Shown piece by piece: positions 1-60,761 of a stretch of DNA of 64,000 nt. A program made the position numbers and the translations under genes. The notes beneath the pieces are model-generated. The model was not told the DNA's origin. It made no database searches and was given only the letters and a program-made list of their open reading frames with translations. The DNA comes from Paraspadella gotoi (Eukaryota; Animalia; Chaetognatha): positions 20,933,636 to 20,997,635 of the forward strand of contig CM119264.1 of assembly GCA_051294375.1 (NCBI GenBank). Reading direction: 5' to 3'. Each line of letters begins with the position of its first letter. The first letter of the stretch is position 1.

Positions 1-370
1 AAATCTAGTTCTTTATTTTTTAGCAGATATAAAATTATTGCATAAAACATAAATTTCTATTTGAGATCAAAAAATTACTGAGGACAGAATGTGCGTTCCA
101 TATACGGACTTAATGGTCGGATAGCTTAAAAGTTATTAAAATAGAACTGACGGAGAAAACAATTATAATGGCTAATTTAAAATTATTTAACCCCAATTTA
201 ACAGTAACAAAAATAAAATTAATGAGCAAAGCAATTAGAATGCGTTTATCGATGTTCCTCGTAGTGGAGTTGTTGCGCTCATTTCCCGATCTTCATCGTT
301 GTCCAACTTAAACGGCTCCTGCGAACCGCTTCATTCGCTCCATTTAACCAGAGACCCGTTCCTCCGCTCC

Positions 371-1841
371 TTAATATCCGGCCATCTCGTTGAAGGTCTG
401 CTCCAGCTCGACGCAGATTTCCTGGTACTTTTCCTTCCAGTCGTTGAGGTCGGCCAGGAGGAGCTCCAACTCCTGCTGCTGCTTTGCTGCTTCTCGCTCC
501 GCTGCGGCGGCTTGGATCTCGGTGAACTTGAGGTTGAGGGTCAGGTCTCTGCGATGGGTAGGGAAAAAGGTAAGAATCAGGGTGGGCGAGACAGTTAAAC
601 AATTGAAAGGTAAAAAAAATATTTAAGACTGACCTAATCTTTTCCTCGTACTCCTCGTGCCGCTTGAGGGCGTTGGTCTCCGACAACTCGAGCGTCTTCA
701 TGTTCTGTCCGACCACGTTGAGTTGTTCCTCCAACTCTTGGATCTTTGCTTCGGCCTCGGACGCCTTCTCGTTGGTTCTGTCCAACTCGACTTGGGTCAT
801 GGACAGTTTCCTGAAGGAATTGTAGATTATTATCATTCGGGTAATTTAATCTCGAATACGATTATGGCTGTGCCTTTGATAAATTGTGTACGATGTAAAA
901 ATTAACTACTAAACAATAACTTAGTTTTGAAATGATGTTAATTAACCCACTTTACCCCCTAAATCTTCCGCTCCTACCTGGAGGCTTCCTCTGCGTTTCT
1001 CTGGGAGACGAGGGCAACCTCTTGGGCAACGGCGATCTTCCTGTCCAGACTGTCGATGGCCTCGTCGTTAACGAAGCCTTTGGCCTCGAGGATCTTCCTC
1101 TGGACTTCGACTTCCTCGGCTGCTTTGGCGGCCTCGGCCAGTTTGGTCGTCTCGACTGTTTGATGGTTAAGTTACTTGAATGTAGCAAGGTTTTATTGTA
1201 GTATAGAGCTGAAGCTTTGAATTTTAACTGTTGAAGTGTAAACTAACTTACCAGTGAGTCTGCTGTCGGATCTTTGGATGTCGTCGTCGAGCAGAGAGCT
1301 GCGTCGCTGCAGCGCAGAGACCTCGTCCTCATTGACCAGCTGCTGCTTCTCTGCTTCCTCCAAGGAGACGCCGGCGGCGAGAAGTTTTTCTGTGGTGTCG
1401 TCGAGGTCGTTCTCAACCTGACAGCGAAGTTGACACCGTTTTTACTTGTTGTCTTGGCCTTCATGAGATTATCCGTTCATCCTAATATTGTTACACCACT
1501 CGACTTTAAATATTTCCTTGTTTAAAAGTATCCTACCTTCATGATTTTTTTGCCCAGCTGCAAGATTTCGTCATCGCGAGATTTGAGAATTTTGTTCAAC
1601 TCGACGACTCGATTCTAAAGGTTTAAAAAATCGTTTGTTTCATTATTTAATTAATACTTTTCGACATCTTAGAAAACTTTATTTATTTTTCAACGCCATA
1701 TCACATATATTTCTACATCCAAATAACCTGCAATGCCTTCTCCATGTCCGCCGACGCCTCCTTGGCGTTTTTCAAGCTGAGCATCTTCTTGCGGATGGCC
1801 TCCATGGTGTTGGAAGCGGTTTCCTTGGCCTTCGACGACAT
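371..1841 (-). CDS. TPM: Tropomyosin, long (284-aa) type with optional 12-aa N-terminal extension; exons 1841-1728, 1614-1537, 1417-1252, 1155-978, 810-634, 548-371
   Basis: Six GT-AG exons splice in frame (891 nt). The product reads (MSSKAKETASNT)MEAIRKKM...ASRKLSMTQVELDR...LEEQLNVVGQNMKTLE...ELEQTFNEMAGY*, exactly 284 aa from the second Met, with typical tropomyosin termini. Confidence 0.93.
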
Positions 1842-3185: not shown

Positions 3186-3424
3186 TATATGATTAAATAA
3201 AATTCGTTGTGAAACAAAAATCATTTTGCCCAAATTTTATAAATTATAAATTAAAATTAGTTTCTAAAAAAAAAAAAATTTATTGTTAAAAAATAAACTA
3301 ATGAGCAGACGCAGCCCCTGAAAAAAAAAAAAGAAATAAAAACCCGATGTTGCGATAGCAAAATGATAACATGCACGAATGCGATGCCTAATTTTACGAG
3401 TTCAATCCTATTTCAATTTTTTTT

Positions 3425-4722
3425 AGTCGGATCTGCTTATCAGCAGATCCCGACTCTATAATTCACTTTGTCGGTCCGTCGGTCCGCCCCCTCAATATTG
3501 TCGGGCACTAACTTATATCATGTCAGAACATCGAATTATGATAAATTATGCCAAAAAAATGATGTCCGTCTGTCTGTCCGTCCGTCCGTCCGTCCGTCCG
3601 TCCGTCCGTCCGTCCGTCCGTCCGTCCGTCCGTCCGTCCGTTCGTCCCACCTTAGCAAAAAACACCAATTACTCATGATTGGCTGGATGGATTTGAATAA
3701 AATTTTGTGTGTGGATAGGAAAGTGTGTGATTAAGCTGGATATGAAGTTTCCGATGGAATCGTCAGAGTGGAAATGAGTTTAAATGGAAAAAAAAAAAAA
3801 AAATATTCACTATTTGAACACCAATTGCTCATGAGTGGATGGGCTGATTGACCTGGAATTTTGTATGTGGGGAGGAAAGTGTGTGTTTGAACAGGAAATC
3901 AAGTTTCGATGGAATAGTTTTGAGTGGAAATGAGTTTAAATGGAAAAAAAAAAAAAAAACCTGTTTTACCAATTGATTATGCTTTTTTTTCTTTTCATAT
4001 TAAATGTATATGCAGGATGTATTATTAAATCAAATAATTAATCAGTTAATTAATCAATTAGTCAATTAATTAATCAATAATTAATTAATCAGTCAATCAA
4101 TCCGTCCATCCGTTCCACCTTAGCAAAAAGCTCCAATAACTCGTGATTGGCTGGTTGGATTGGAATGAAATTTTGTGTGTGGGTAGGAAAGTGTGTGATG
4201 AAGCTGGATATAAAGTTTCGACGGAATAGTGTGAGTGGATATGAGTTTAAATGGAAAAAACATAAGTCGCATTTACTAAAATCTTTTTATTTATTTTAAC
4301 CAATAAGTACTCTAATTAATCATAATTGGATGGATAGATTGAGTTCAAATTTTTGTGTGTGGGTAGGAAAATGTGTGACGAAGCTTGATATAAAGTTTCG
4401 GTACGAAATGGAAATGAGTTTAAATGAAAAAAATATGAGTCATATTTATTTGACTCTTTTTACTTATTTTAACCCATAATATATTGAGATAAAATTTTGT
4501 TAGCAGGAAGGAAAGTTTGTGGAGAAGCTAGATATAAAGTTTTGACGGAATTGTGCCAGTGGAAATGATTTTAAATGGAAAAAATATAAGTCACATTTAT
4601 TTTATTTTAAGGACATTGATGATGATAAGCTGTATTTTAATTTATAATTAATTATTAAAATTAATTAATTAATTAATTAATTAATTTTCGTAGGCAGATC
4701 CGACATTGTTTGCTCAAACTTG
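3425..4722 (+). mobile_element. Helentron-associated non-autonomous element (HINE/DINE-1/pearl-like), family A
   Basis: Sits in a T-run with no TSD. 5' subTIR GTCGGATCTGC with adjacent inverted copy, (GTCC)n microsatellite, central ~130-bp tandem repeats, 3' subTIR GCAGATCCGAC and terminal hairpin GTTTGCTCAAAC. Confidence 0.8.
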
Positions 4723-11996: not shown

Positions 11997-12555
11997 TATG
12001 GTGGACTAAAATCCACCAACCGTTCATCAGCGGCCATTGGTGCCGGAGGCAAGTCATTCGCCTCCCAACCCAAAGGTCCGGGGTTCTAGCCCGGTGGCTG
12101 CCTAGCATTTAAGAGGGACGGGGCGCTTAACCCGCCTGTAACATGGTGTTACAGCCTGATCCGAAGCTCAGGGACTGCTTATATTGAATGGTTCTGTCAT
12201 TAACACATATCAATAATTACTGTCTCTTCATTGGTGAGCCCGACTTCCGAACACAACAGCAACAACAACCCTTTCAGGCGACATGCCTCAACCTGGCGAT
12301 GCACTTTCCGCCCACAATATATCAGGCGATAGGCCTCAACTTGATGACGAACTTTCCACCAACAACAACAATTCACTGAAGAGACGCAACAGACTTCTCC
12401 CTACGGGAGGGGGGATGTATGGTGGACTAAAATCTACCAACCGTTCATCAGCGGCCATTGGTGCCGGAGGCAAGTCATTCGCCTCCCAACCCAAAGGTCC
12501 GGGGTTCTAGCCCGGTGGCTGCCTAGCAGTTAAGAGGGACGGGGCGCTTAACCCG
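11997..12555 (+). mobile_element. Miniature LTR element (TRIM/retrozyme-like), family A; 5' LTR 11997-12230, 3' LTR 12418-12555 (truncated)
   Basis: Direct repeats; PBS TGGTGAGCCCGAC at 12232; PPT GGGAGGGGGGA at 12405-12415; twister-like motif at 12105-12178; homologous to 27837-28485. Confidence 0.85.
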
Positions 12556-19620: not shown

Positions 19621-19836
19621 TGAGGAGACAGTAATAATTGTTATATGTTAGTGACAGAACCGTTAAATATAAGCAGTCCCTGAACTTCGGATCAGGCTGT
19701 AACACCGTGTTACAGGCGGGTTAAGCGCCCCGTCCCTCTTAACTGCTAGGCGGCCACCGGGCTAGAACCCCGGACCTTTGGGTTGGGAGGCACCAATGGC
19801 CGCTGATGAACGGTTGGTGGATTTTAGTCCACCATA
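19621..19836 (-). mobile_element. Solo LTR family A with twister-like motif (19673-19746)
   Basis: Reverse complement of the family A LTR; 4-bp TSD ACGG at 19617-19620 and 19837-19840. Confidence 0.85.
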
Positions 19837-21395: not shown

Positions 21396-22654
21396 CAAGT
21401 TTGAGCAAACAATGTCGGATCTGCCTACGAAAATTAATTAATTAATTAATCGATTAATTAATCAATTAATTAATTATTTTAATAATTAATTATAAATTTA
21501 TATACAGCTTATCATCATCGATGTCCTTAAAATAAAGTAAATGTGACTTATATTTTTTCCATTTAAAATCATTTCCACTGGCACAACTCCGTCAAAACTT
21601 TATATCTAGCTTCTTCACAAACTTTCCTTCCTGCTCACAAAATTTCATCTCAATCTATTATGGGTTAAAATAAGTAAAAAGAGTCAAGTAAATGTGACTC
21701 ATATTTTTTTTATTTAAACTCATTTCCATTCGTACCGAAACTTTATATCAAGCTTCGTCACACATTTTCCTACCCACACACAAAATTTGAACTCAATCTA
21801 TCCATCCAATTATGATTAATTAGAGTATTTATTGGTGAAAATAAGTAAAAAGATTTTAGTAAATGCGACTTATGTTTTTTCCATTTAAACTCATATCCAC
21901 TCACACTATTCCGTCAAAACTTTATATCCAGCTTCATCACATATGTTCCTACCCATACACAAAATTTCACTCCGATCCAATCAGCCAATCACGAGTTATT
22001 GGGGCTTTTTGCTAAGGTGGAACGGATGGACGGATTGATTGACTGATTAATTAATTAGTGATTAATTAAATGACTAATTGATTAATTAACTGATTAATTA
22101 TTTGATTTATTAATACATCCTGCATATACATTTAATATAAAAGGAAAAAAAATCATAATCAATTAGTTAAACAGGTTTTTTGTTTTTTTTTATTTAAACT
22201 CATTTCCACTCAAACGATTCCACCGAAACTTGGTTTCCTGTTCAATCACACACTTTCCTACAAAATTCCAGGTCAATCGCCCCATCCACTCATGAGCAAT
22301 TGGTGTTTAAATAGTGAATTATATTTTTTTGTTTTTTCCATTTAAACTCATTTCCACTCGGACGATTCCATAGAAACTTTATATCCAGCTCAATCACACA
22401 ATTCCCTACCCATACACAAAATTTCACTCAAATCCATCCATCCATCCAATCACGAGTAATTGGTGTTTTTTGCTAAGGTGTGATGGACGGACGGACGGAC
22501 GGACGGACAGACGCACATCATTTTTTTGCATAATTTATCATAATTAGATGTTCTGACATGATATAAGTTAGTGCCCGACAATATTGAGGGGGCGGACCGA
22601 CGGACCAACAAATGGAATTATAGAGTCGGGATCTGCTGATAAGCAGATCCGACT
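21396..22654 (-). mobile_element. HINE family A copy
   Basis: Reverse complement of 3425-4722; absent from the paralogous site at ~45267; no TSD. Confidence 0.85.
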
Positions 22655-23046
22655 AAAAACCCGTTGTTTGTAAACAAATAAAATTTGCTTTCACTTATCT
22701 ATAAACGCAACAAAAAGAAAGTCTTAACACAATATTCAATGGTCATGGATTATAAAAGACTAACAAGAGAAAACATGCTTTCAAGAAACTAACAACTATA
22801 AAAATAATGAGGAAGAGAAATAGAAAAAGAAAAAGCAAAAGCGAAAGAAAGAAAGAGAAAGAGAAAACAAAATATACAGAATTAGAATTACATTGTGCTT
22901 TTTATTTTATTATCTTTTTTCATATTTTTATTATGCTATGAGCCAAAAGAAAGATTTATTATAATGCTTTATTTCATTAGCTGATGGGTAGATTCAAGAT
23001 AGATTTTTCAAACCAATTTTTTTAATTTATCAACTATAATGTGTAC

Positions 23047-24791: not shown

Positions 24792-25750
24792 CAAGTTTGA
24801 GCAAACAGTGTCGGATCTGCCTACAATAATTAAGCGGTAATCAGCTAATCAGATGATAAATGACAATATTTTTAAAAAAAAATTTTAACTCGCATCATTT
24901 TTTCAACTCACATCATTTTTTCAACTTGCATCATTTTTTCCACTCACATCATTTTTTCAACTCACATCATTTTTTCAACTCACATCATTATTTCAATTCG
25001 CTTCATTTTTTCTACTTGCATCATTTTTTTTTAACTCTGCATTCTTTTTTTACTTGCATTCATTTTTTTTAACTTGCATCTTTTATTTTTTTCACTTGCA
25101 TAATTTTTTCAACTTGCTTAATTTTTTGAATTGCATCATTTTTTACATTAATTAAATAATTAATTAATTAAACATTTATTAGTAATTATAAATATATAAA
25201 GATTCAATAAATGTGACTTATGTTTTCTGCATTTAAACTCATTTCCACTGCAGGATTCCGTCAAAACTTTGTATCTAGCTTCTTACACACTTCCTACCCG
25301 CACACAAAATTTCATTCTCAATCTATTAATTCAATTATGATTAATTCGAGCAATTATGGGTTAAAATAAGTAAAAAGATTCAAGTAAATGTGACGCATAT
25401 TTTTTTTATTTAAACTCATTTCCACTCGCACGTTTCCACCAAAACTTTATCTCAAGCTTCGTCACACCACTTTCCTACTCACACACCAAAATTTCAACTC
25501 AATATATCCATCCAATTATTGATTATTAGAGTATTATTGGTTAAAATAAGTAAAAATATTTTAGTAAATGCGACTTATGTTTTTTCCATTTAAACTCATT
25601 TGCACTCGCACGATTCCATCGAATCTTTTGTCCAGCTTTATCACACACTTTCCTACCCACACATAAATTTTATTCCAATCCACCACCAATCACGAGTTAT
25701 TGGAGCTTTTTCTAAGGTGAAACAGACGGATACGGACAGACGGACGGACC
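24792..25750 (-). mobile_element. HINE family A copy, 5'-truncated, with ~19-bp AACTCACATCATTTTTTC tandem array
   Basis: 3' hairpin and subTIR, ~130-bp repeats, remnant GACG microsatellite. Confidence 0.8.
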
Positions 25751-26570: not shown

Positions 26571-27836
26571 CTTTTAAATATTTATTAATATATAACAAAT
26601 GACAAAAATTTTTTTTAAAAAAATTTATTTTAAGAACGGATTCTTATAGAGCTTGAAAAAGTTAAATGAAAGTAGTACTACATTTTTTTAAAATATTTGA
26701 CAAGAAATTTGGTTAAAATAAAAAAAAAACGTTAAAAAATCATCATCATCATCATCATTGTGCTGAATTTTATAGTTTTTTAAAATTTTACCAATAAAAC
26801 AAAAAAATTTTAAAAATTTGTATTAATAACCTTTATCTAACTTTTAAAGCTCTATCAGAATTTATCAAAAAAAATTGACAAATTCAAAAAAAAATTTTAA
26901 CTTTTATATAGTAATAAATTATCTTTAAAGGCTTCCGTGCGCTTATTATGAAATATTTTTTTAAAATATATTTTTATTTTCATATTCTCTAACAGTCACT
27001 TTACCATTATTTATTTTGAGAGAACTTCTAGTTTTCAACCTGTTCCGGCCTAATACATACCGGGAAAGTCTATAGGGCACCTTTATGTCATGAATATAAT
27101 TTTAAAGTTATATTTTTTCTTTATTCTACTTTTTAATTGTTTCTTTTTTGAATATTTTTTATCTTTTTTTTATACAATGAAGGTCATCAGTTGGGAACCT
27201 ATACCCTTCATGGATTTGGCTCTTTAATCCCAATATCCAGGTATAGGCGAGCCATCACCAATGGTGATCCTTCATTGTTGCTTATCTTATATTTTAAATG
27301 TATATCTTGAATGTTTATCTGAAACAGACCAAAGCCCTGGCTTCACAGCATCATTAATTTTAGAGAAATTTTATTAAGGTTTTGTAATAATTTGTAATTT
27401 GTAAATAAATAAAATAAGTTAAATAATTAGTTTAATAATAAGTTAATAATTAAGGGTATGTTAATGTAAAGTTAACATTAAGTTAATTGTAAAGTTAAAA
27501 AGTTTAAAAAATAAATTAAATCAGAGAGAGAAGAGTCCCGTTTCAGAGCAAAATCTGGAATCTGGAATCCGCAAAAGAGAGAAAGAGACGAACGTCGATA
27601 TCTCCTATATAAAAGAGCTTCTGAGTTACAGTCGTCTGGACTTTAAAGCTCCTCCCTTATCCACCGAGATCCTGTCCTCAGGATACGCTCCTGACGACGC
27701 CGGACTCGCGTCATACAAAATCTTAACCTCCGTCATCTTGTATTCTTCATTTACTGAGTCGCGCTACAAATAATCTCAAGTTGACTTTGAATGCTCCATC
27801 TCTGCCACGCGGGACTTCATCCGGTATAGTGAAATG

Positions 27837-28485
27837 TATGGTGGACTAAAATCCACCAACCGTTCATCAGTGGCCATTGGTGCCGGAGGCAAGTCATTCG
27901 CCTCCCAACCCAAAGGTCCGGGGTTCTAGCCCGGTGGTCGTCTGGCAGTTAAGAGAGACAGGGCGCTTAACCCGCCTGTAACATGGTGTTACAGCCTGAT
28001 CCGAAGCTCAGGGACTGCTAAATTGAACGGTTCTGTCATTAACACTTATCAATAATTACTGTCTCTTCATTGGTGAGCCCGACTTCCGAACACAACAGCA
28101 ACAACAACACTTTCAGGCGACATGCCTGAACCTGGCGATGCACTTTCCGCCCACAACACATCAGGCGACATGCCTCAACTTGGTGACGAACTTTCCACCA
28201 ACAACAATTCACTGAAGAGACGCAACAGACTTCCCCTATGGGAGGGGGGATGTATGGTGGACTAAAATCCACCAACCGTTCATCAGCAGCCATTGGTGCG
28301 GAGGCAAGTCATTCGACTCCCAACCCAAAGGTCCTTGGTTCTAGCCCGGTGGTCGTCTGGTAGTTAAGAGGGACGGGGTGCTTAACCCGCCTGTAACATG
28401 GTGTTACAGCCTGATCCGAAGCTCAGGGACTGCTTATATTGAACGGTTCTGTCTTTATCACATAACAATAATTACTGTCTCTTCA
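27837..28485 (+). mobile_element. Complete miniature LTR element (TRIM/retrozyme-like), family A: LTR 27837-28069, internal 28070-28252, LTR 28253-28485
   Basis: 233-bp direct repeats ending in TCA; PBS TGGTGAGCCCGAC (28071); PPT at 28240-28250; 4-bp TSD AATG; no coding capacity. Confidence 0.9.
28360..28433 (+). ncRNA. Twister ribozyme, type P5 permutation (predicted cleavage 28383|28384); mutated twin at 27945-28018
   Basis: P5 GTAGT/ACTGC; P2 CCC/G(A)GG; conserved GA and U|AA; T2 GC/GC; P3 CTGTAACA/TGTTACAG; P4 CTGA/TCAG with loop TCCG-AAGC; T1 TCCG/CGGG. Confidence 0.8.
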
Positions 28486-29340
28486 AATGTAATCAAACGT
28501 CATACAAAAAAAATATGTTTTCTTATTAGACCAAACATAATTGAGGGCCATAGCATAATAATATTATTGGGAACTCCCACGAAGTCCGTTCTGGTCAGCG
28601 GTGAAACCAGGGTGGTACAGAAGATAAAGATAAAAATAACACCACCGCTCCGAAGATCCTGTTCTCAGGACAAGCAGGGCAGCAGGGCTGCATTCATTCT
28701 TAACGGTAGCCATCTTGGATTCTTCATTCACTGACCATGCTGTCTTACGCATCAATGCTATTATGTGCCACGCGGGATTTTAATAGAATTTTCATAAAGT
28801 ACTCAACTAATTGTCAAAGGATAAACATTAGGATCTCCTTATAACTCCGTTTTCTTTACGGCAAAACCAGAGTGGTACAGGTCCCCAAGAAAAGATAAAG
28901 ATCATACTCCTAGTCCCAAGCAGAGGACAGGTTTTCAACAATTATTTTATATTCCAAGAGATCATTTATGCATCGAAAAGAAATTGTATATTGGATCCCA
29001 TGCTTCCCTAGAATCGCCGGGGACAACAAATTTATTAGAGTTCCGTAGTGTTCCTTCGCGATTTAGATTGAGTTTTTTTTCTTGTCTATTGCTTATTACA
29101 GATACTGAAGGAAAATGTAAACACATCGGCTATTTAAACAAAAGAAAAACAATCACTGAATCCTATGCAACATGTCAGTTTCTGCAGCCATATGATACAA
29201 CAAACGCGGGGAGATGTCAGACGAGTTGGCGAGGCGACAGGTTTTCATGGCGCTGCAATATGTCCTCTTCGTTTTCCTTTCAATACTTTTCCACGAACCT
29301 AACCGTCGCTCTTTTTTATTAAGTCCAGTTGGCTCCAGAA

Positions 29341-31271: not shown

Positions 31272-32284
31272 ATGAGCGCAAATTCAGTCGGCAATAAAGA
31301 TTCGTCCACCCGTCTCATTTTAAGATGCCAACTCTTTCTTATCTTGTTTTGCACCCTCTTCACTGTTTGCATACATGCAGGACCAGGTATGTGCATTTTA
31401 CTTAATGATGTTTAGTTGAATTTATAAAAATACATTATACTGCAGAGGGCGAAAACCATCACTTCAAATCGGAGGTCATGGCGAACCCTCAACTAAAACT
31501 TCTTGTCAATAATCTCCTACAACAACGCTCACGACAAGCGGACAATTCGGACATTGACGAGGACGATAATCCAAAGAGCGAATCAGATCATGGGTCGCCC
31601 GAAGTCGTCGACGAAGCATTCCAGAACTCTAGTGAAGAAACAGATCTCACCCCGACAGCCAACTACAAGATGATAAACGCCAAAAAGATGATGAAAAAAT
31701 CTATTTCACCGGCGTCGAGCGGGGATTTCGACAAAAGACCGGATCCTTATGGATTTGCTGGCGGTCTGGGAAAGAGGGCGGATCTGTATGGGTTTGCTGG
31801 TGGACTTGGTAAGAGACCTGATTCCTATGGGTTTGCCGGAGGATTGGGGAAAAGGGCAGATCCTTATGGCTTTGAAGGGAGTCTTGGTAAAAGACCAGAT
31901 CCTTCCGGTTTTTCTGGAGGACTCGGAAAACGGCCAGATCCTTATGGATTTTCGGCAGGACTGGGGAAACGGCCAGATCCATATGGATTCGCTGGAGGAC
32001 TCGGGAAAAGGCCTGATCCATATGGGTTTGCTGGAGGACTGGGAAAAAGGCCTGATCCTTATGGGTTTGCTGGAGGACTAGGGAAAAGGCCTGATCCTTA
32101 TGGGTTTGCTGGAGGACTAGGGAAAAGGCCTGATCCTTATGGGTTTGCTGGAGGACTAGGGAAAAGGCCTGATCCTTATGGGTTTGCTGGTGGTTTGGGG
32201 AAACGAGCTGATCCCTACGCTTTTGCCGGAGGACTTGGAAAAAGAGTCGATCCTTATGGATTCTCAGGAGGATTAGGTAAATGA
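31272..32284 (+). CDS. Buccalin/allatostatin-A-type neuropeptide precursor, 317 aa; exons 31272-31386 and 31446-32284
   Basis: Hydrophobic signal segment LFLILFCTLFTVCIHA, acidic spacer, then 14 GK(R)-terminated 10-mers (PDPYGFAGGL x7 and variants), similar to Aplysia buccalin-type -FxGGL-amide peptides. Confidence 0.9.
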
Positions 32285-34496: not shown

Positions 34497-36819
34497 GAAG
34501 ACGGAGTTTTTTTTAATTCCTTAGAGGGAAACATTGATAAATAATGAATATTAAAAAATTCAGAATGAAATTGTAATATAGTTATAATAATATAAACGCA
34601 ACAGTTGTACCTTTGATCCCGTAGGCGGTTCATCTTCTTCTTTAACAATTTTCTTCATCGACTTTGAAGCCAGACTCTCGTGCAAAGAGAGAGAATTCGG
34701 CAAATACCTGTTAACAAAAATCAAATGTTAAAGTTAGACAAAATGAACGTTTATATAGTAGGAAGAGACAAATCTCGGGTCAATCAGGAAGAAAAAAAAA
34801 TATATATATAATTATATATATATATTAAGATTTATCTTTGGGAAACAATAATAACACAAAATTAGCAGGATTGTTTTTTTTTTCAGTAAAGCAAAATGTT
34901 TTTAAACAAGTTTGAGCAAACAATGTCGGATCTGCTAATCGTTAATCAGCTAATAAGATGATAAATCACAATATTTAAAAAAAAAAATTTTAACTCGCAT
35001 CATTTTTTCAACTTGCATCATTTTTTTCACTTACATCATTTTTTCAACTCACATCATTTTTTCAATTTGTATCATTTTTACAATTTGCATCATTTTTCAA
35101 CTTGCATCATTTTTTTAACTTGCATCATTTTTTTTAACTTGCATCATTTTTTTTAACTTGCATAATATTTTTAACGCACATAATTTTTTTAAATTGCATC
35201 ATTTTTTCACATTAATTAATTCATTAATTAATTGAAACATTTATTAGTAATCATAAATAATAAAGATTCAAGTAAATGTGACATATGTTTTTTTCCATAT
35301 AAACTCATTTCCACTGGCTTGATTCCGTCAAAACTATATCTTGCTTCTTCACACACTTTCCTACCCATACACAAAATTTCATCTCAATCTATTAATTCAA
35401 TTATGATTAATTCGAGTAATTATGGGTTAAAATAAGTAAAAAGATTCAAGTAAATGTGACTCATATTTTTTTCATTTAAACCCATTTCCACTCGCACGTT
35501 TCCGTCGAAATTTTATATCAAGCTTCGTCACACACTTTCCTACCCACACACAAAATTTCAACTCAATCTATCCTTCCAATTATGATTAATTAGAGTAATT
35601 ATTGGTTAAAATAAGTAAAAAGATTTTAGTAAATGTGACTTATGTTTTTTCCATTTAAACTCAATTCCACTTGCACGATTCCATCAAAACTTTATATCCA
35701 GCTTCATGACACACTTTCCTACCCACACATAAAATTTCATTCTAATCCAACCACCCAATCACGAGTTAATGGAGTTTTTTGCTAAGGTGGGACGGACGGA
35801 CGACGGACGGACGGACGGACGGACGGACGGACGGACGGACATCATTTTTTAAAAATAATTTTTCATAATTCGATGTTCTGACATGATGTAAGTGAATGCC
35901 CGACAAGATTGAGGGGGCGGTCAGACGGACCGACAAAGTGAATTATAGAGTCGGGATCTGCTTTCAGCAGATCCGACTAAAAAGGTCATGGTCAAATATC
36001 ATTACCACTTTTCACCCGATTTGTCTCTACTTAAATTAACTTCTTCGCTACTTCCTACAATAACTGATACTCTACCAAAAAGCGGAACTTTCAGATTAAC
36101 CTGCATCCCCTCTTTAGCGCATTCCTCACGGTTCCCAATATCTTTTTCAGTCCTTCGTTTTCGAGTTTAAGGAGATCGTTTTCTCTTTTAACCGCTTCTA
36201 ACGATTTTGCTGAAATAAACAAAATAATTTTTAATTATTGTCACAGGCTAATTAGGTTTTGAAAATCCAGGCTTTTTACCATACTGATACTCCGATTGAA
36301 TTCCTGCCTCATTTCGTTTCTTATGTATATCTTACTTTTTATTTTTTATTTTCAGCCTAGACTGTTTTAGTGTACATACTTAGCCAAGAAAAACATTAGA
36401 AAAGCCCAGTTGATATCGAAATTCCTGCCCATCCTCTTATCCCTCCCAGGTCGCACCCTTGTTTTCCTTCTCCAATGCCTTCGTCGCCACGTTCGCCATC
36501 GTCGCCGCGAGACTTCCGCTTTGCTCCCTCCGTTTCTGGACCATCTGCTTGAAGCGGCTCTCTCGAACCGGGGACTCTTTCTGCGAGGAACGAAATAATA
36601 AAAATAATAAATAAATAAAAATAATAATAAAAAACGAAATAATAAAAACCATGGCAAGCTGTGGTTCGACTTTCAGCAAACAATATCTAAAACTATGTAA
36701 CTATAGATTAGTGATAAAGCGAAATATGGTTGTTTTAACAAAGATTCGACTTTATGACTCCTTGCCTTTGATTTTTGCTTGACCGTCTGAACGGACGGTA
36801 ATGTTTTTCTTGACGACAT
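32923..36819 (-). CDS. Coiled-coil protein with C-terminal death domain; exons include 36580-36457, 36209-36101, 34707-34611, 34519-34329, 34213-34074, 33974-33934, 33847-33787, 33698-33471, 33352-33265, 33049-32923 (5' exons tentative)
   Basis: Ten phase-compatible GT-AG exons; heptads LEAVKRENDLLKLENEGLK and LEELETRVTQL; death-fold pattern MWELVGAQLGV..AAHLVLIEW...ATVDLFIRLL. Confidence 0.7.
34907..35978 (-). mobile_element. HINE family A copy (intronic)
   Basis: Both termini, GACG microsatellite, and ~130-bp and ~19-bp internal arrays present. Confidence 0.85.
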
Positions 36820-53293: not shown

Positions 53294-54604
53294 CTCTCTC
53301 TCGGTCATCGTGATTTGTGGAGAAAATGGGAAAAAAATTTTTCCGAGTTCAAAATCCCCCACAAACGAGGACTATAACGAACTCTTTTCTTTCTTTTTTT
53401 CTTTTTCATTTGATTTTTTTTTCATTTGTTTCCATTGATTCAATTTTCATATTTAGTAAAACGTTTTTAAACTAACGTTGACTTTTTATGTAATCAAGCT
53501 AATTTAATTAAATTGATTTCATCAGGCGACGACGGAATCGAATCAGGCCCTTGTCCTGAAATGCAGCACTTGACGGAATTTGACGCCCGGTCTTTCGCAG
53601 GCACCTGGCACATCCTTTCATTCAAGCCCAATATGTTTGAGTCAAACAGTCTCAAATGCCGGTAACTGATAAGGCACTGATGCCTATTACTAGTAGCCTT
53701 CATTAGGACTTGCTCAAAGTAGCAGTTATTGTACTGCGATATGCGATACAATTTTACTTTTTTTATCAGGAGAATCGAAGTTGCGATGAAGGAATCGGTC
53801 AAAGGCAATGTCGTCGCCATCACATCTTTCGACACGCAGGAAGGAGAAGAGACGAAGACGACGAGAGAAGCGAAGTGGGAGCCGAGCCAAGGGGGACTCT
53901 TGAAAACCTCTCAGGTGGGCGGGGGGCGGGTACCCAGGAACTCGTTGCAAGGGGGTTAGATGAATTAAAGAAACATTCAAGATAACGAATTTGGGATTAA
54001 AATCCACCAATCGTTCATCAGCGGCCATTGGTGCCGTAGGCAAGTCATTCGCCTCCCAACCCAAAGGTCCGGGGTTCTAGCCCGGTGGCCGCCTTGCAGT
54101 TAAGAAGGATGGGGCGCTTAACCCGGCTGTAACACGGTGTTACAGCCTGATCCGAAGCTCAGGGACTGCTTATATTGAACGGTTCTGTCACTAACACATA
54201 ACAATTATTACTGTCTCTTCCCTATGTTTATTTTCGACCGCAAGAAGACAGAAAAAAAATTGTGAAATTAATAATTAAGTTTTAATAGATTGTATTGTCA
54301 AATAATAATATTTAGTATAGTTGATATTGAGTGTAGCAAAAAACTGAGCATTGAAAATCAAAATTCCCACATCCACCAGGAAATCTTTGGCTTCTCTCTC
54401 GACGTACCCCTCAAGATCCTGTGGACGGACTATTCGAAATCGGGCGTCGGGTGGTGCTGTGTTGAGTCCTTCGGGTCTCACGCCGACGCCGCGTGGATCT
54501 GGAGTCGGACACCGACGCTTGACGACGAGACGATGGGGAAGATGAGGAAGATATTGGAGGATCGAGGGGTGCACGCTGAAGACATGGTGGACGGGGAGTG
54601 TTGA
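52949..54604 (+). CDS. Apolipoprotein D-like lipocalin; exons 52949-53021, 53526-53661, 53770-53914, 54380-54604
   Basis: Signal peptide, GPCP..FDARSFAGTWH (GxW motif), TDY motif, AWIWSRTPTL, terminal Cys; splice phases compatible. Confidence 0.88.
53993..54220 (+). mobile_element. Family A LTR copy (5' end degraded) in lipocalin intron
   Basis: Near-identical to the 27837-28069 body; perfect GCGGCCA/TGGCCGC acceptor-like stem. Confidence 0.8.
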
Positions 54605-58595: not shown

Positions 58596-60302
58596 AGTCG
58601 ACTCTATAATTCACTTTGTCGGGCACTAACTTATATCATGTCAGAACATCGAATTATGATAAATTATGCAAAAAAAATGATGTCCGTCCGTCCGTCTGTC
58701 TGTCCGTCCGACCGTCCGTCCGTCCCACCTTAGCAAAAAATACCCATTACTCGTGATTGGAAGGATGGATTTGAATAAAATTTTGTGTGTGGGTAGGGAA
58801 GTGTGTGATTGAGCTGGATATGAAGTTTCGATGGAATCGTCAGAGTGGAAATGAGTTTAAATGGAAAAAACAAAAAAATATATTTCACTTTTTGAACACC
58901 AATTGCTCATGAGTGAATGCGGCGATTGACCTGGAATTTTGTATGTGGGTAGGAAAGTGTGTGATTGAACAGGAAATCAAGTTTCGATGGAATCGTTTGA
59001 GTGGAAATGAGTTTAAATGGAAAAAAACAAAAAACCTGTTTCACAAATTGATTATGCTTCTTTTTCTTTTTATATTATATTATATATATATATTATTATA
59101 TGTATTAATAAATTAAATAATTAATCAGTTAATTAATCAATTAGTCAATTAATTAATCAATAATTAATTAATCAGTCAATCAATCCGTCCATCCGTCCTA
59201 CCTTAGCCAAAAGCTCCAATAACTCGTGATTACCTGGTTGGATTGGAATGAAATTTTGTGTGTGGGTAGGAAAGTGTGCGATAAAGCTGGATATAAAGTT
59301 TCGATGGAATCGTGTGAGTGGAAATAAGTTTAAATGGAAAAAACATAAGTCGCATTTACTAAAATATTTTTACTTATTCTAACCAATAAATACTCTAAAT
59401 AATCATAATTGGATGGATAGATTGAGTACAAATTTTGTGTGTGGGTAGGAAAGTGTGTGATGAAGCTTGATATAAAGTTTCGTTACGAGTGGAAATGAGT
59501 TTAAATGAAAAAAATATGAGTCACATTTATTTGAATCTTTTTACTTATTTTAACCCATAATAGATTGAGATGAAATTTTGTGAGCGGGTAGGAAAGTGTG
59601 TGAAGAAGCTAGATATAAAGTTTTTACGGAATTGTACCAGTGGAAATGAGTTTAAATGGAAAAAACATAAGTCACATTTACTTGAATCTTTATTATTTAT
59701 GATTACTAATAAATGTTTTAAAAATAATGTGAAAAAATGATTCAATTTAAAAAAAATTATGCAAGTTGAAAAAATGATGCAAGGTGAAAAAATCTTAAAA
59801 GCATAAGGATCGTCGCAATTGCAGAGAGAGAAAGAGAGAGAGAGATAAAAACGAAATAAAAACATGATGTTGCGATAGCAAAATGATAACATGCACAAAT
59901 GCCATGCTTAAATTTATGAGTTCAATCCTAATTCACTTTTTTTTTTTAATAAAAACGCAGAGAGAGAGAGAGAGCGGCAGCAGCAGAGGCAGCCAGAAAA
60001 AAATTAAGAAATCAAAAGGCAGCAGTAGAAGCAGCAGGAGAAAAGAGCAGAGCCAGCTGCAGACTCGTTTTTTTTCCTAGCACTAAAAATGGCGCAAGTT
60101 AAAAAAATGATGCAAGTTGAAAAAATGATGCGAATTGTAAAAATTATGCAAATTGAAAAAATGATGTGAATTGAAAAAATGATGTGAGTGGAAAAAATGA
60201 TGCGAGTTGAAAAAATGATGTGAGTTAAAAAAAATTTTAATTTTAATCTTCTAAAACCGCTTAATTATTGTAGGCAGATCCGACATTGTTTGCTCAAACT
60301 TG
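58596..60302 (+). mobile_element. HINE family A copy with nested family B fragment (~59790-60080)
   Basis: Homologous to 3425-4722; 5' hairpin collapsed to AGTCGACT; 3' end intact. Confidence 0.8.
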
Positions 60303-60524: not shown

Positions 60525-60761
60525 TGTGGAAGACGATGCCTCGAGCAGTTTACCGTCCGTTGCACACAAGGTTCCGAACTTCGGATCGGGCTGTAGTCCG
60601 ACACTACAGGTGGGTTAGACCACCCGTCCCGCTTTTACTTGTGTGAATCAGCATGGCCCGAACCCGAGTCCTTTGGGTTGGGAGGAGCTCGTGCTACCCC
60701 CGGCGCCATAGGTGCTGCGGATTCTCGGACGAGTAGCAGGGTATGAAATACTACCGCTACA
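60525..60761 (-). mobile_element. Solo LTR family B with tRNA-like head and twister ribozyme (60563-60645)
   Basis: TG...CA termini, 4-bp TSD ATTC, 237 bp; same fold as family A with compensatory changes. Confidence 0.85.

Follow-up and report, generated by a model that had tools for sequence, protein, structure and literature searches.

A Helenus-type miniature LTR element with a putative variant twister ribozyme in each LTR in the chaetognath Paraspadella gotoi

Described retrozymes fall into two lines: LTR elements with type III hammerheads, known mainly from plants, and non-LTR tandem elements with type I hammerheads, known mostly from animals (PMC7761336; PMC7229834). The window analyzed here, a stretch of 64,000 nucleotides of the Paraspadella gotoi genome to which all positions refer, contains a short element at 27837–28485 for which an initial annotation had proposed a twister ribozyme in each LTR. 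Is this locus a real LTR element, are the cores of its LTRs related to twisters, and what might a pair of such ribozymes do in its replication? The division that the annotation drew between plant LTR retrozymes with hammerheads and metazoan non-LTR tandems agrees with the available text of PMC4918200 and PMC7229834. Its remark that no twister LTR retrozyme had been described in an animal is likewise borne out by the literature searched (mostly at title and abstract level, with subscription journals and Repbase notes outside the search), in which neither a twister in LTRs nor an animal LTR retrozyme was found. Judging from its sequence, the element is a Helenus-type TRIM that exists in two families and carries a variant twister in each LTR.

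The locus is a real LTR element. It spans 649 bp on the plus strand and is gene-less and non-coding, with two LTRs of 233 bp each (27837–28069 and 28253–28485, identified by BLAST against the window) on either side of a 183-bp non-coding internal region (28070–28252), in which 14 bp are directly repeated at 28114 and 28162. The two LTRs are 93% alike, with 14 substitutions and 2 gap columns between them. The 5' LTR starts with TA and ends with CA, and a short hairpin is located at its start (27840–27857; counterpart at 28256–28273 in the 3' LTR). The PBS (28071–28083) starts one base after the 5' LTR and agrees at 12 of 13 positions with the 3' end of tRNA-Trp given in Fig. S2 of PMC10886601, and the PPT (28240–28250) stops two bases before the 3' LTR. 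An internal stretch at 28213–28221 is complementary to the LTR end at 28061–28069 and adjoins the PBS in the predicted fold. The same letters, AATG, flank the element as TSD on the left (27833–27836, seen in window self-comparison) and on the right (28486–28489). With two LTRs, a PBS and a PPT in a short non-coding unit, the element is a TRIM.

The borders were also examined in contigs of sequencing run X1 of the same organism. Among the matches listed, which belong to a longer table so that all counts are lower bounds, loose contig ends were found in at least 111 contigs at 27837, at least 58 at 28069, at least 45 at 28253, and at least 59 and 58 at 28485 and 28486, respectively. Since these contigs leave the reference exactly at the LTR ends, the borders are correct and the family of this element (family A) is high-copy; this statement is the only use made here of summed contig depth, which does not measure copy number. 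Runs X10–X12, in which few contigs (1–6 per comparison) or none matched, were left out as evidence, and no run recorded as RNA was found to contain the element. The start of family A LTRs with TA instead of TG is concordantly indicated by two TSDs and the loose ends. Thus, the anatomy originally proposed (a 649-bp non-coding element, two 233-bp LTRs, PBS, PPT, and 4-bp TSD) is upheld by BLAST, the PBS match, and the loose contig ends. A 129-codon frame across the 3' LTR was considered as an ORF and rejected, as it has no Pfam match. Both flanks (27544–27720 and 28512–28800) are at raised depth in X1 and are thus repeated in the organism, suggesting that the element was probably inserted into another repeat.

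The window contains several other features. The precursor of a neuropeptide, containing roughly twelve repeats, is encoded at 31409–32284 (plus strand; Pfam Allatostatin, E 3e-7, under the cut-off). We take its peptide ends to be buccalin-type, a hint of lophotrochozoan affinity; a homolog search with this ORF did not narrow down the phylum. A tropomyosin exon is present at 279–845 (minus strand; Pfam E 2e-14). A dispersed AT-rich repeat family occurs at 3420–4661, 21460–22659, 25223–25630, 35289–35962, and 58627–59691, with subrepeats of 150–180 bp that are 80–95% alike and lie in both orientations. Related 18-bp tandem arrays, also in both orientations, are located at 24813–25147, 34918–35245, and 60067–60246.

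Four further insertions of the same kind were found in the window. Family A has a second two-LTR copy at 11997–12555 (plus strand), which breaks off 6 nt past the U at its 3' cut and whose predicted monomer is 12129–12549, and two solo LTRs: one at 19621–19836 (minus strand), with the TSD CCGT on both sides and an 18-nt deletion in its head, and one with frayed ends at 53994–54220 (plus strand), detected by BLAST against the window. Window comparison revealed a further solo LTR of 237 bp at 60525–60761 (minus strand), which has TG...CA ends and the TSD GAAT and represents another family (family B). It has a tRNA-like head at about 60651–60720 (detected by a tRNA HMM) and a twister at 60563–60645 with a predicted cut after U 60617, both on the minus strand. 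This second, divergent family, whose sequence indicates the same layout, had escaped the initial annotation. A 4-bp TSD is thus present in three of the five window insertions (AATG, CCGT, and GAAT), the other two being truncated or frayed. Family B is also high-copy, and its contig borders are the same as those of its window copy. In one MAFFT alignment, the two families share 63% identity in the head, 73% in the twister core (45 of 62 positions), and 36–42% elsewhere (U5, 21 of 58; 5' end, 14 of 33), the core being the best kept part.

A stretch of 16 nt in the head (27901–27916, equivalent to 60671–60686 on the minus strand) is identical in the two families; it spans the anticodon loop to the variable loop and is not a promoter box. 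In run X9, depth was approximately ten times higher at 60651–60705, covering the family B head only, with differing letters at 60689 and 60692. Depth in this run tracks repeat content and carries no expression meaning, and the peak may come from a third repeat sharing the head or from the source tRNA.

The tRNA-like head itself is 73 nt long in the 5' LTR (27870–27942, plus strand), with an acceptor stem, a broken anticodon stem, a CCC loop, and a T-arm containing GGTTC at 27922–27926. The head of the 3' LTR (28286–28357, plus strand) is decayed, with a 1-nt deletion and changes in the T-stem. An HMM built from 19 archaeal tRNAs placed the seven LTR heads as its seven best matches in the window (E 0.016–0.57; the next match had E 6.2). 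In family A, a covariance model of the same tRNAs aligned over the whole 73 nt, including an acceptor stem of 7 bp and the T-arm. Five of its ten matches were family A heads (E 0.4 for the 27870 head and 5e-5 to 0.03 for four sisters); the ten included neither the decayed 3' head nor the head of family B. Neither Rfam tRNA nor ARAGORN called the head in the window or its sub-regions, and the broken anticodon stem implies that it is not a working tRNA. Taken together, these matches indicate that the head is very probably tRNA-derived.

By eye, the A box (TRGCY, YGG) is degenerate in family A and closer to consensus in family B, and the B box presumably has a single mismatch to its consensus. 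The head is a likely type 2 Pol III promoter. No sense-strand T4 is present in any window copy; because 23% of shuffles lack T4 as well, this is weak evidence for Pol III read-through. The first T4 run after the head, found by letter scan, lies outside the element at 28518–28521 (plus strand) and might serve as a Pol III stop. The head, which the initial annotation missed, likely ties the element to Helenus (TRIMp3) and supplies it with a candidate promoter.

Immediately relevant to the ribozyme question are the cores at 27945–28018 in the 5' LTR and 28360–28433 in the 3' LTR (both plus strand). The LTR contains all landmarks of the Rfam twister-P1 consensus line in permuted order: the cut-site UAA, the two-base T2 strand, a P3 near consensus, P4, an 8-base L4 with AA, the UAA linker, the P2 strand, GA, and the T1 strand; in T1, one pair has both of its bases swapped. 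Alignment to the twister consensus puts the predicted U|A cut at 27968|27969 in the 5' LTR and at 28383|28384 in the 3' LTR. These are the positions given previously, as are the resulting monomers of 415 nt and, for the 11997 copy, 421 nt; the landmarks lie where they should, and the cuts remain predictions. Neither length is divisible by three, which excludes an endless ORF in the circle. There are also departures from the consensus: P2 consists of 3 bp and a bulge, P4 of 5 bp, and P1 of one pair at most. Thus, the earlier description of a P5 twister in each LTR is supported by the landmarks and by covariation (see below), and its helices P1, P2, and P4 deviate from the standard form.

The 5' LTR core departs from the family at 27956 (P2) and 27960 (T1), where G makes up 90% and 83% of X1 depth, respectively, so that the letters of this LTR are private. 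All modeled pairs are kept in the 3' LTR. These findings agree with the view of two G>A changes in the 5' copy and an intact fold in the 3' copy, except that the 3' LTR also has private letters, at 28361 and 28379, both of which still pair (G-U).

Searches with Rfam twister models gave no match in the window at gathering level, nor in three sub-regions at E up to 10; the covariance-model check suggested with the original proposal hence went against it. Rfam hammerhead models also had no match in the window or the three sub-regions. As the Rfam models were silent, natural twisters were fetched and compared position by position. They came from genome contigs, four of the seven loci matching twister models at E up to 1, and a P5 match was present in 3 of 151 related genomes. 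One bacterial contig contains three P5 twisters within 1.1 kb (G001:C702:3772-4875, loci L010–L012), each just 5' of an ATG.

No variation occurs in the cut-site UAA, the G of GA, or the L4 core when four window copies are aligned with three natural P5 twisters. Across six window copies, pairing is found in 96% of 126 cells (94% for T1 and 92% for T2). Two-sided changes occur in 4 of 21 pairs (one in T2, two in P3, and one in P4), compared with none in slid controls and 1 of 500 shuffles, a figure which is not a probability; all four come from family B and therefore amount to a single comparison. P5 is kept with unrelated sequence, being 5 bp in family A and 8 bp in family B. A generic P5-twister descriptor, whose P2 length was relaxed after the sequence had been viewed, recognized four of six LTR copies, two of three natural P5 twisters, and 0–1 of 3000 dinucleotide shuffles per copy. 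A looser descriptor found seven matches in the whole window, four of which are LTRs, and 20 shuffles gave 0–3. Conversely, when a covariance model built from the six window copies only was run over 68,984 bases, its top match was L010, a natural P5 twister (E 0.002); its second match was a locus that had been fetched by the element's own pattern, and another natural P5 twister had E 4. On this evidence, the LTR core is very probably a twister homolog.

Whether the ribozyme is active may differ among copies. T1 is broken in the 5' LTR of the 27837 copy and T2 in the 53994 copy, and no window copy has two complete, intact ribozymes. A survey of approximately 2,600 natural twister candidates reported that faults in P1, P2, and P4 are well tolerated and that pseudoknot mismatches are harmful (PMC11662667), and P1 has been described as dispensable (PMC6154101; PMC11662667). 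This pattern suggests that intact copies are likely active and that the 5' LTR of the 27837 copy is likely impaired; given the T1 mismatch in its 5' ribozyme, this copy is probably inefficient at monomer release. Here, P1, P2, and P4 are off consensus all at once, a combination absent from the available text of PMC11662667. Nearest-neighbor folding favors a hairpin which traps T1', a preference that weighs little because the same program misfolds most of five natural twisters. A conserved "blocking hairpin" at the cut site was also considered and rejected, since its pairing in the family B window copy needs letters that most B copies lack. We consider it probable that the twister is active in the intact copies.

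In place of P1, there is a self-complementary hexamer at 27962–27967 (plus strand), which could form a 6-bp self-duplex of −8.3 kcal/mol and which the initial annotation had also overlooked. The distance from the T1 strand to the cut site is six bases in both families, and 216 of the 4096 hexamers are self-complementary. In family B, the hexamer of the window copy shows self-complementarity only in part. The prevailing letters at 60621 and 60622 (99% and 98% of depth), taken site by site, would make it complete, with different pairs. Hence P1 has at most one pair within a copy, and 6 bp are possible between copies. A dimer mode can be envisaged in which pairing between the hexamers of the two LTRs creates one common P1 of 6 bp. 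The LTRs would thereby exchange halves, every active site taking its 5' half from one and its 3' half from the other. With pseudoknots excluded, the swapped dimer of the 19836 copy is predicted to lie 12 kcal/mol below two P1-less monomers and 10 kcal/mol above two copies of the competing hairpin. A parallel exists in the axolotl, whose hammerheads have a helix of one pair with a palindromic tetraloop and cleave more efficiently when dimeric; their monomers are closed by RtcB in vitro (PMC7229834). We put the double twister, as modeled, at a little short of an even chance. No dimeric twister is described in the literature searched (mostly at title and abstract level); if true, a natural one would, as far as this search reached, be new to ribozyme biochemistry.

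These features can be combined into a replication cycle. Pol III would start near 27870 and read through the element into the flank. Both LTRs would be cut at U|A, releasing a 415-nt monomer (27969–28383), which is predicted to contain U5, the PBS, the PPT, and the head of the 3' LTR, without a terminal repeat. In the standard mechanism of LTR elements, strand transfer takes place (PMC10886601); a doubly cut RNA without terminal repeat would make ordinary strand transfer impossible unless the RNA were circular. An RtcB-type ligase would join the 5'-OH and cyclic-phosphate ends into such a circle, and tRNA-Trp would prime a Gypsy reverse transcriptase, whose passage over the junction would rebuild two LTRs, as in the model for plant retrozymes, where a circle is copied into two LTRs (PMC7761336). 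The integrase would leave the 4-bp TSD, and the promoter, lost with the 5' end, would be restored from the 3' LTR head that the monomer carries.

The 4-bp TSD and the Trp-type PBS make it reasonable to infer a Gypsy-type helper; a search for a Gypsy helper element in viral contigs gave no match. The predicted circles fold modestly better than their shuffles (z −2.4 and −2.1), with about 53% of bases paired, which is less than the over 70% reported for animal retrozymes (PMC7229834). For the explanation as a whole, from Pol III transcript and two cuts to the 415-nt monomer, the circle, and Gypsy-type reverse transcription, we see a slightly better than even chance of being right, and we lean to the same modest degree toward the circle as the replication intermediate.

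The main rival also assumes an active twister and would follow a linear TRIMp3 cycle, in which usually only one LTR is cut and a terminal repeat (e.g., 27870–27968) is kept; the single cut would trim a flank-derived tail or the 5' head, and circles would be by-products. Such a cycle has precedent in Cassandra, which replicates from a Pol III transcript bearing short duplications at its ends, and a similar route is assumed for Helenus (PMC10886601). Furthermore, a P1 of one pair may slow cleavage (PMC8501958), and an element that lacks a terminator of its own would already benefit from having its 3' end fixed. On the other hand, the same ribozyme is present in both LTRs, so that efficient cutting would destroy the repeat, the dimer mode would arm both sites together, and plant elements of similar layout accumulate circles (PMC7761336). 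We regard the linear cycle as rather unlikely, its chances being clearly lower than those of the cycle through a circle.

Another possibility is that the twister is a dead passenger, acquired a single time together with a tRNA-headed SINE or from a Penelope-like tail, and that the element is a plain Helenus TRIM. The lack of an Rfam twister match and the non-standard P1, P2, and P4 would suit this idea, as would the proposal that Helenus was born by insertion of a SINE into an LTR (PMC10886601). It is difficult to reconcile with two families that are 36–42% alike outside the head and core and yet share 73% of the core, with compensatory changes and all catalytic positions kept. Moreover, among the variant positions listed, each family has a single core site that is truly mixed among copies, and it is located in the loop of P3. 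A dead passenger is thus quite improbable.

The reading as a tandem SINE or Penelope-type pseudo-LTR pair, i.e., a non-LTR retrozyme with a twister, draws on the similar promoter-then-ribozyme logic of schistosome tRNA-plus-hammerhead repeats (PMC6765202) and on the TA start of family A, and is largely refuted and very improbable given the PBS and PPT adjoining the LTRs, the CA ends, the 4-bp TSDs in three of five insertions, borders fixed in more than 100 contigs, and the absence of PBS and PPT and the longer TSDs reported for animal non-LTR retrozymes (PMC7229834).

If the cycle through a circle is correct, the element would cross both lines of retrozymes, combining an animal host, LTRs, and a twister. 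It would also join in one element the TRIMp3 and the retrozymes, which have been described separately, and give natural twisters a role beyond the 5' trimming of LINEs. With the head, a retrozyme would have a promoter inside the element; a 2020 review had ascribed retrozyme transcription to read-through (PMC7761336). In addition, as this variant escapes Rfam, a ribozyme family can be present in many copies in an animal genome and still go unnoticed. Scans for relatives by pattern found none in viral contigs (four scans). In metagenome contigs, two pattern matches were judged to be due to chance, neither having P3/P4 or an LTR context.

Compared with known systems, the closest layout is that of plant LTR retrozymes, which are non-coding and have a ribozyme in each LTR, a PBS, a PPT, a 4-bp TSD, an inferred Ty3/Gypsy helper, and a monomer set by the two cut sites (PMC4918200). 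These elements have a type III hammerhead, a tRNA-Met PBS, LTRs of 300–400 bp, and monomers of about 700 nt (PMC4918200), whereas the present element has a twister, a tRNA-Trp-type PBS, LTRs of 233 bp, a predicted monomer of 415 nt, and an animal host. It further differs in its tRNA-like LTR head, and its circles are predictions. Having a twister-type core and no hammerhead, it is not an LTR retrozyme by the original definition, and it may work like one. The 2020 review also mentioned insect type III hammerheads as "in preparation" (PMC7761336), and that group may therefore already know of a hammerhead-bearing LTR retrozyme in an animal.

The second relative is Helenus (TRIMp3), with which the element shares a TRIM structure of less than 1.3 kb, a tRNA-like LTR sequence with GGTTC, a PBS, and a PPT, as well as the 4-bp TSD of the animal members, solo LTRs, and a Gypsy-type PBS, Helenus-2_SyJa likewise using tRNA-Trp (PMC10886601). 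In most of the animal Helenus LTRs compared, the tRNA sequence is close to the 3' end and frequently precedes a run of T (PMC10886601), whereas here it is in the 5' half, before the ribozyme and without T4. Motif look-ups found the head or PBS motif of the element in no Helenus consensus of DataS1, the available consensus file of PMC10886601, nor was a twister seen there (the fungal part by motif look-up only). In the available text of the same paper, the word "twister" is absent and "ribozyme" occurs only in one reference. Helenus is regarded as having been born several times (PMC10886601).

In the same DataS1 file, the LTRs of two wasp elements, Helenus-2_SyJa-LTR and Helenus-2_SyUm-LTR, contain what looks by eye like a type III hammerhead directly downstream of the head, with extended complementarity between its loops. 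The available parts of PMC10886601 mention no ribozyme in them. Both have a tRNA-Trp-type PBS, and a 4-bp TSD is given for SyJa in Table S1 of that paper. These two elements may be unrecognized animal LTR retrozymes.

The core resembles the type-P5 twister (RF02684) and twister-P1 (RF03160; clan CL00120) in its UAA cut site, GA, T1/T2, L4 AA, P3, and P4, with P3 near the P1-type consensus. It differs from both in falling below Rfam detection and in its P2 of 3 bp plus bulge, P4 of 5 bp, swapped T1 pair, and hexamer replacing P1. Animal non-LTR retrozymes and schistosome tRNA-hammerhead SINEs also have small ribozyme-cut monomers with a promoter upstream (PMC7229834; PMC6765202), and the weak helix with palindromic tetraloop of the former, which works as a dimer, is comparable to the hexamer (PMC7229834). 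In contrast to the present element, they are tandem, Penelope-linked, type I hammerhead elements reported without LTR, PBS, or PPT (PMC7229834; PMC6765202). Twister T-variants are known from another animal retroelement, Perere-3, but this element is autonomous and non-LTR, with one ribozyme at its 5' end (PMC8501958), and twisters have also been found in viroid-like circles (PMC12542633; PMC13725137).

The last comparison is with an engineered system, Tornado, in which the circle is reportedly closed by RtcB. In Tornado, a Pol III transcript is cut by twisters and becomes a circle, but the construct is synthetic (bioRxiv 2023.07.11.548538). As a tentative generalization, which is less likely than not, animals may have Pol III-driven LTR retrozymes of their own that are natural Tornado cassettes: a double twister would cut only a two-LTR precursor, the resulting one-twister circle would resist recutting and be copied by Gypsy, and the ribozyme slot would be interchangeable, holding a twister here and a hammerhead in the two wasp Helenus elements.
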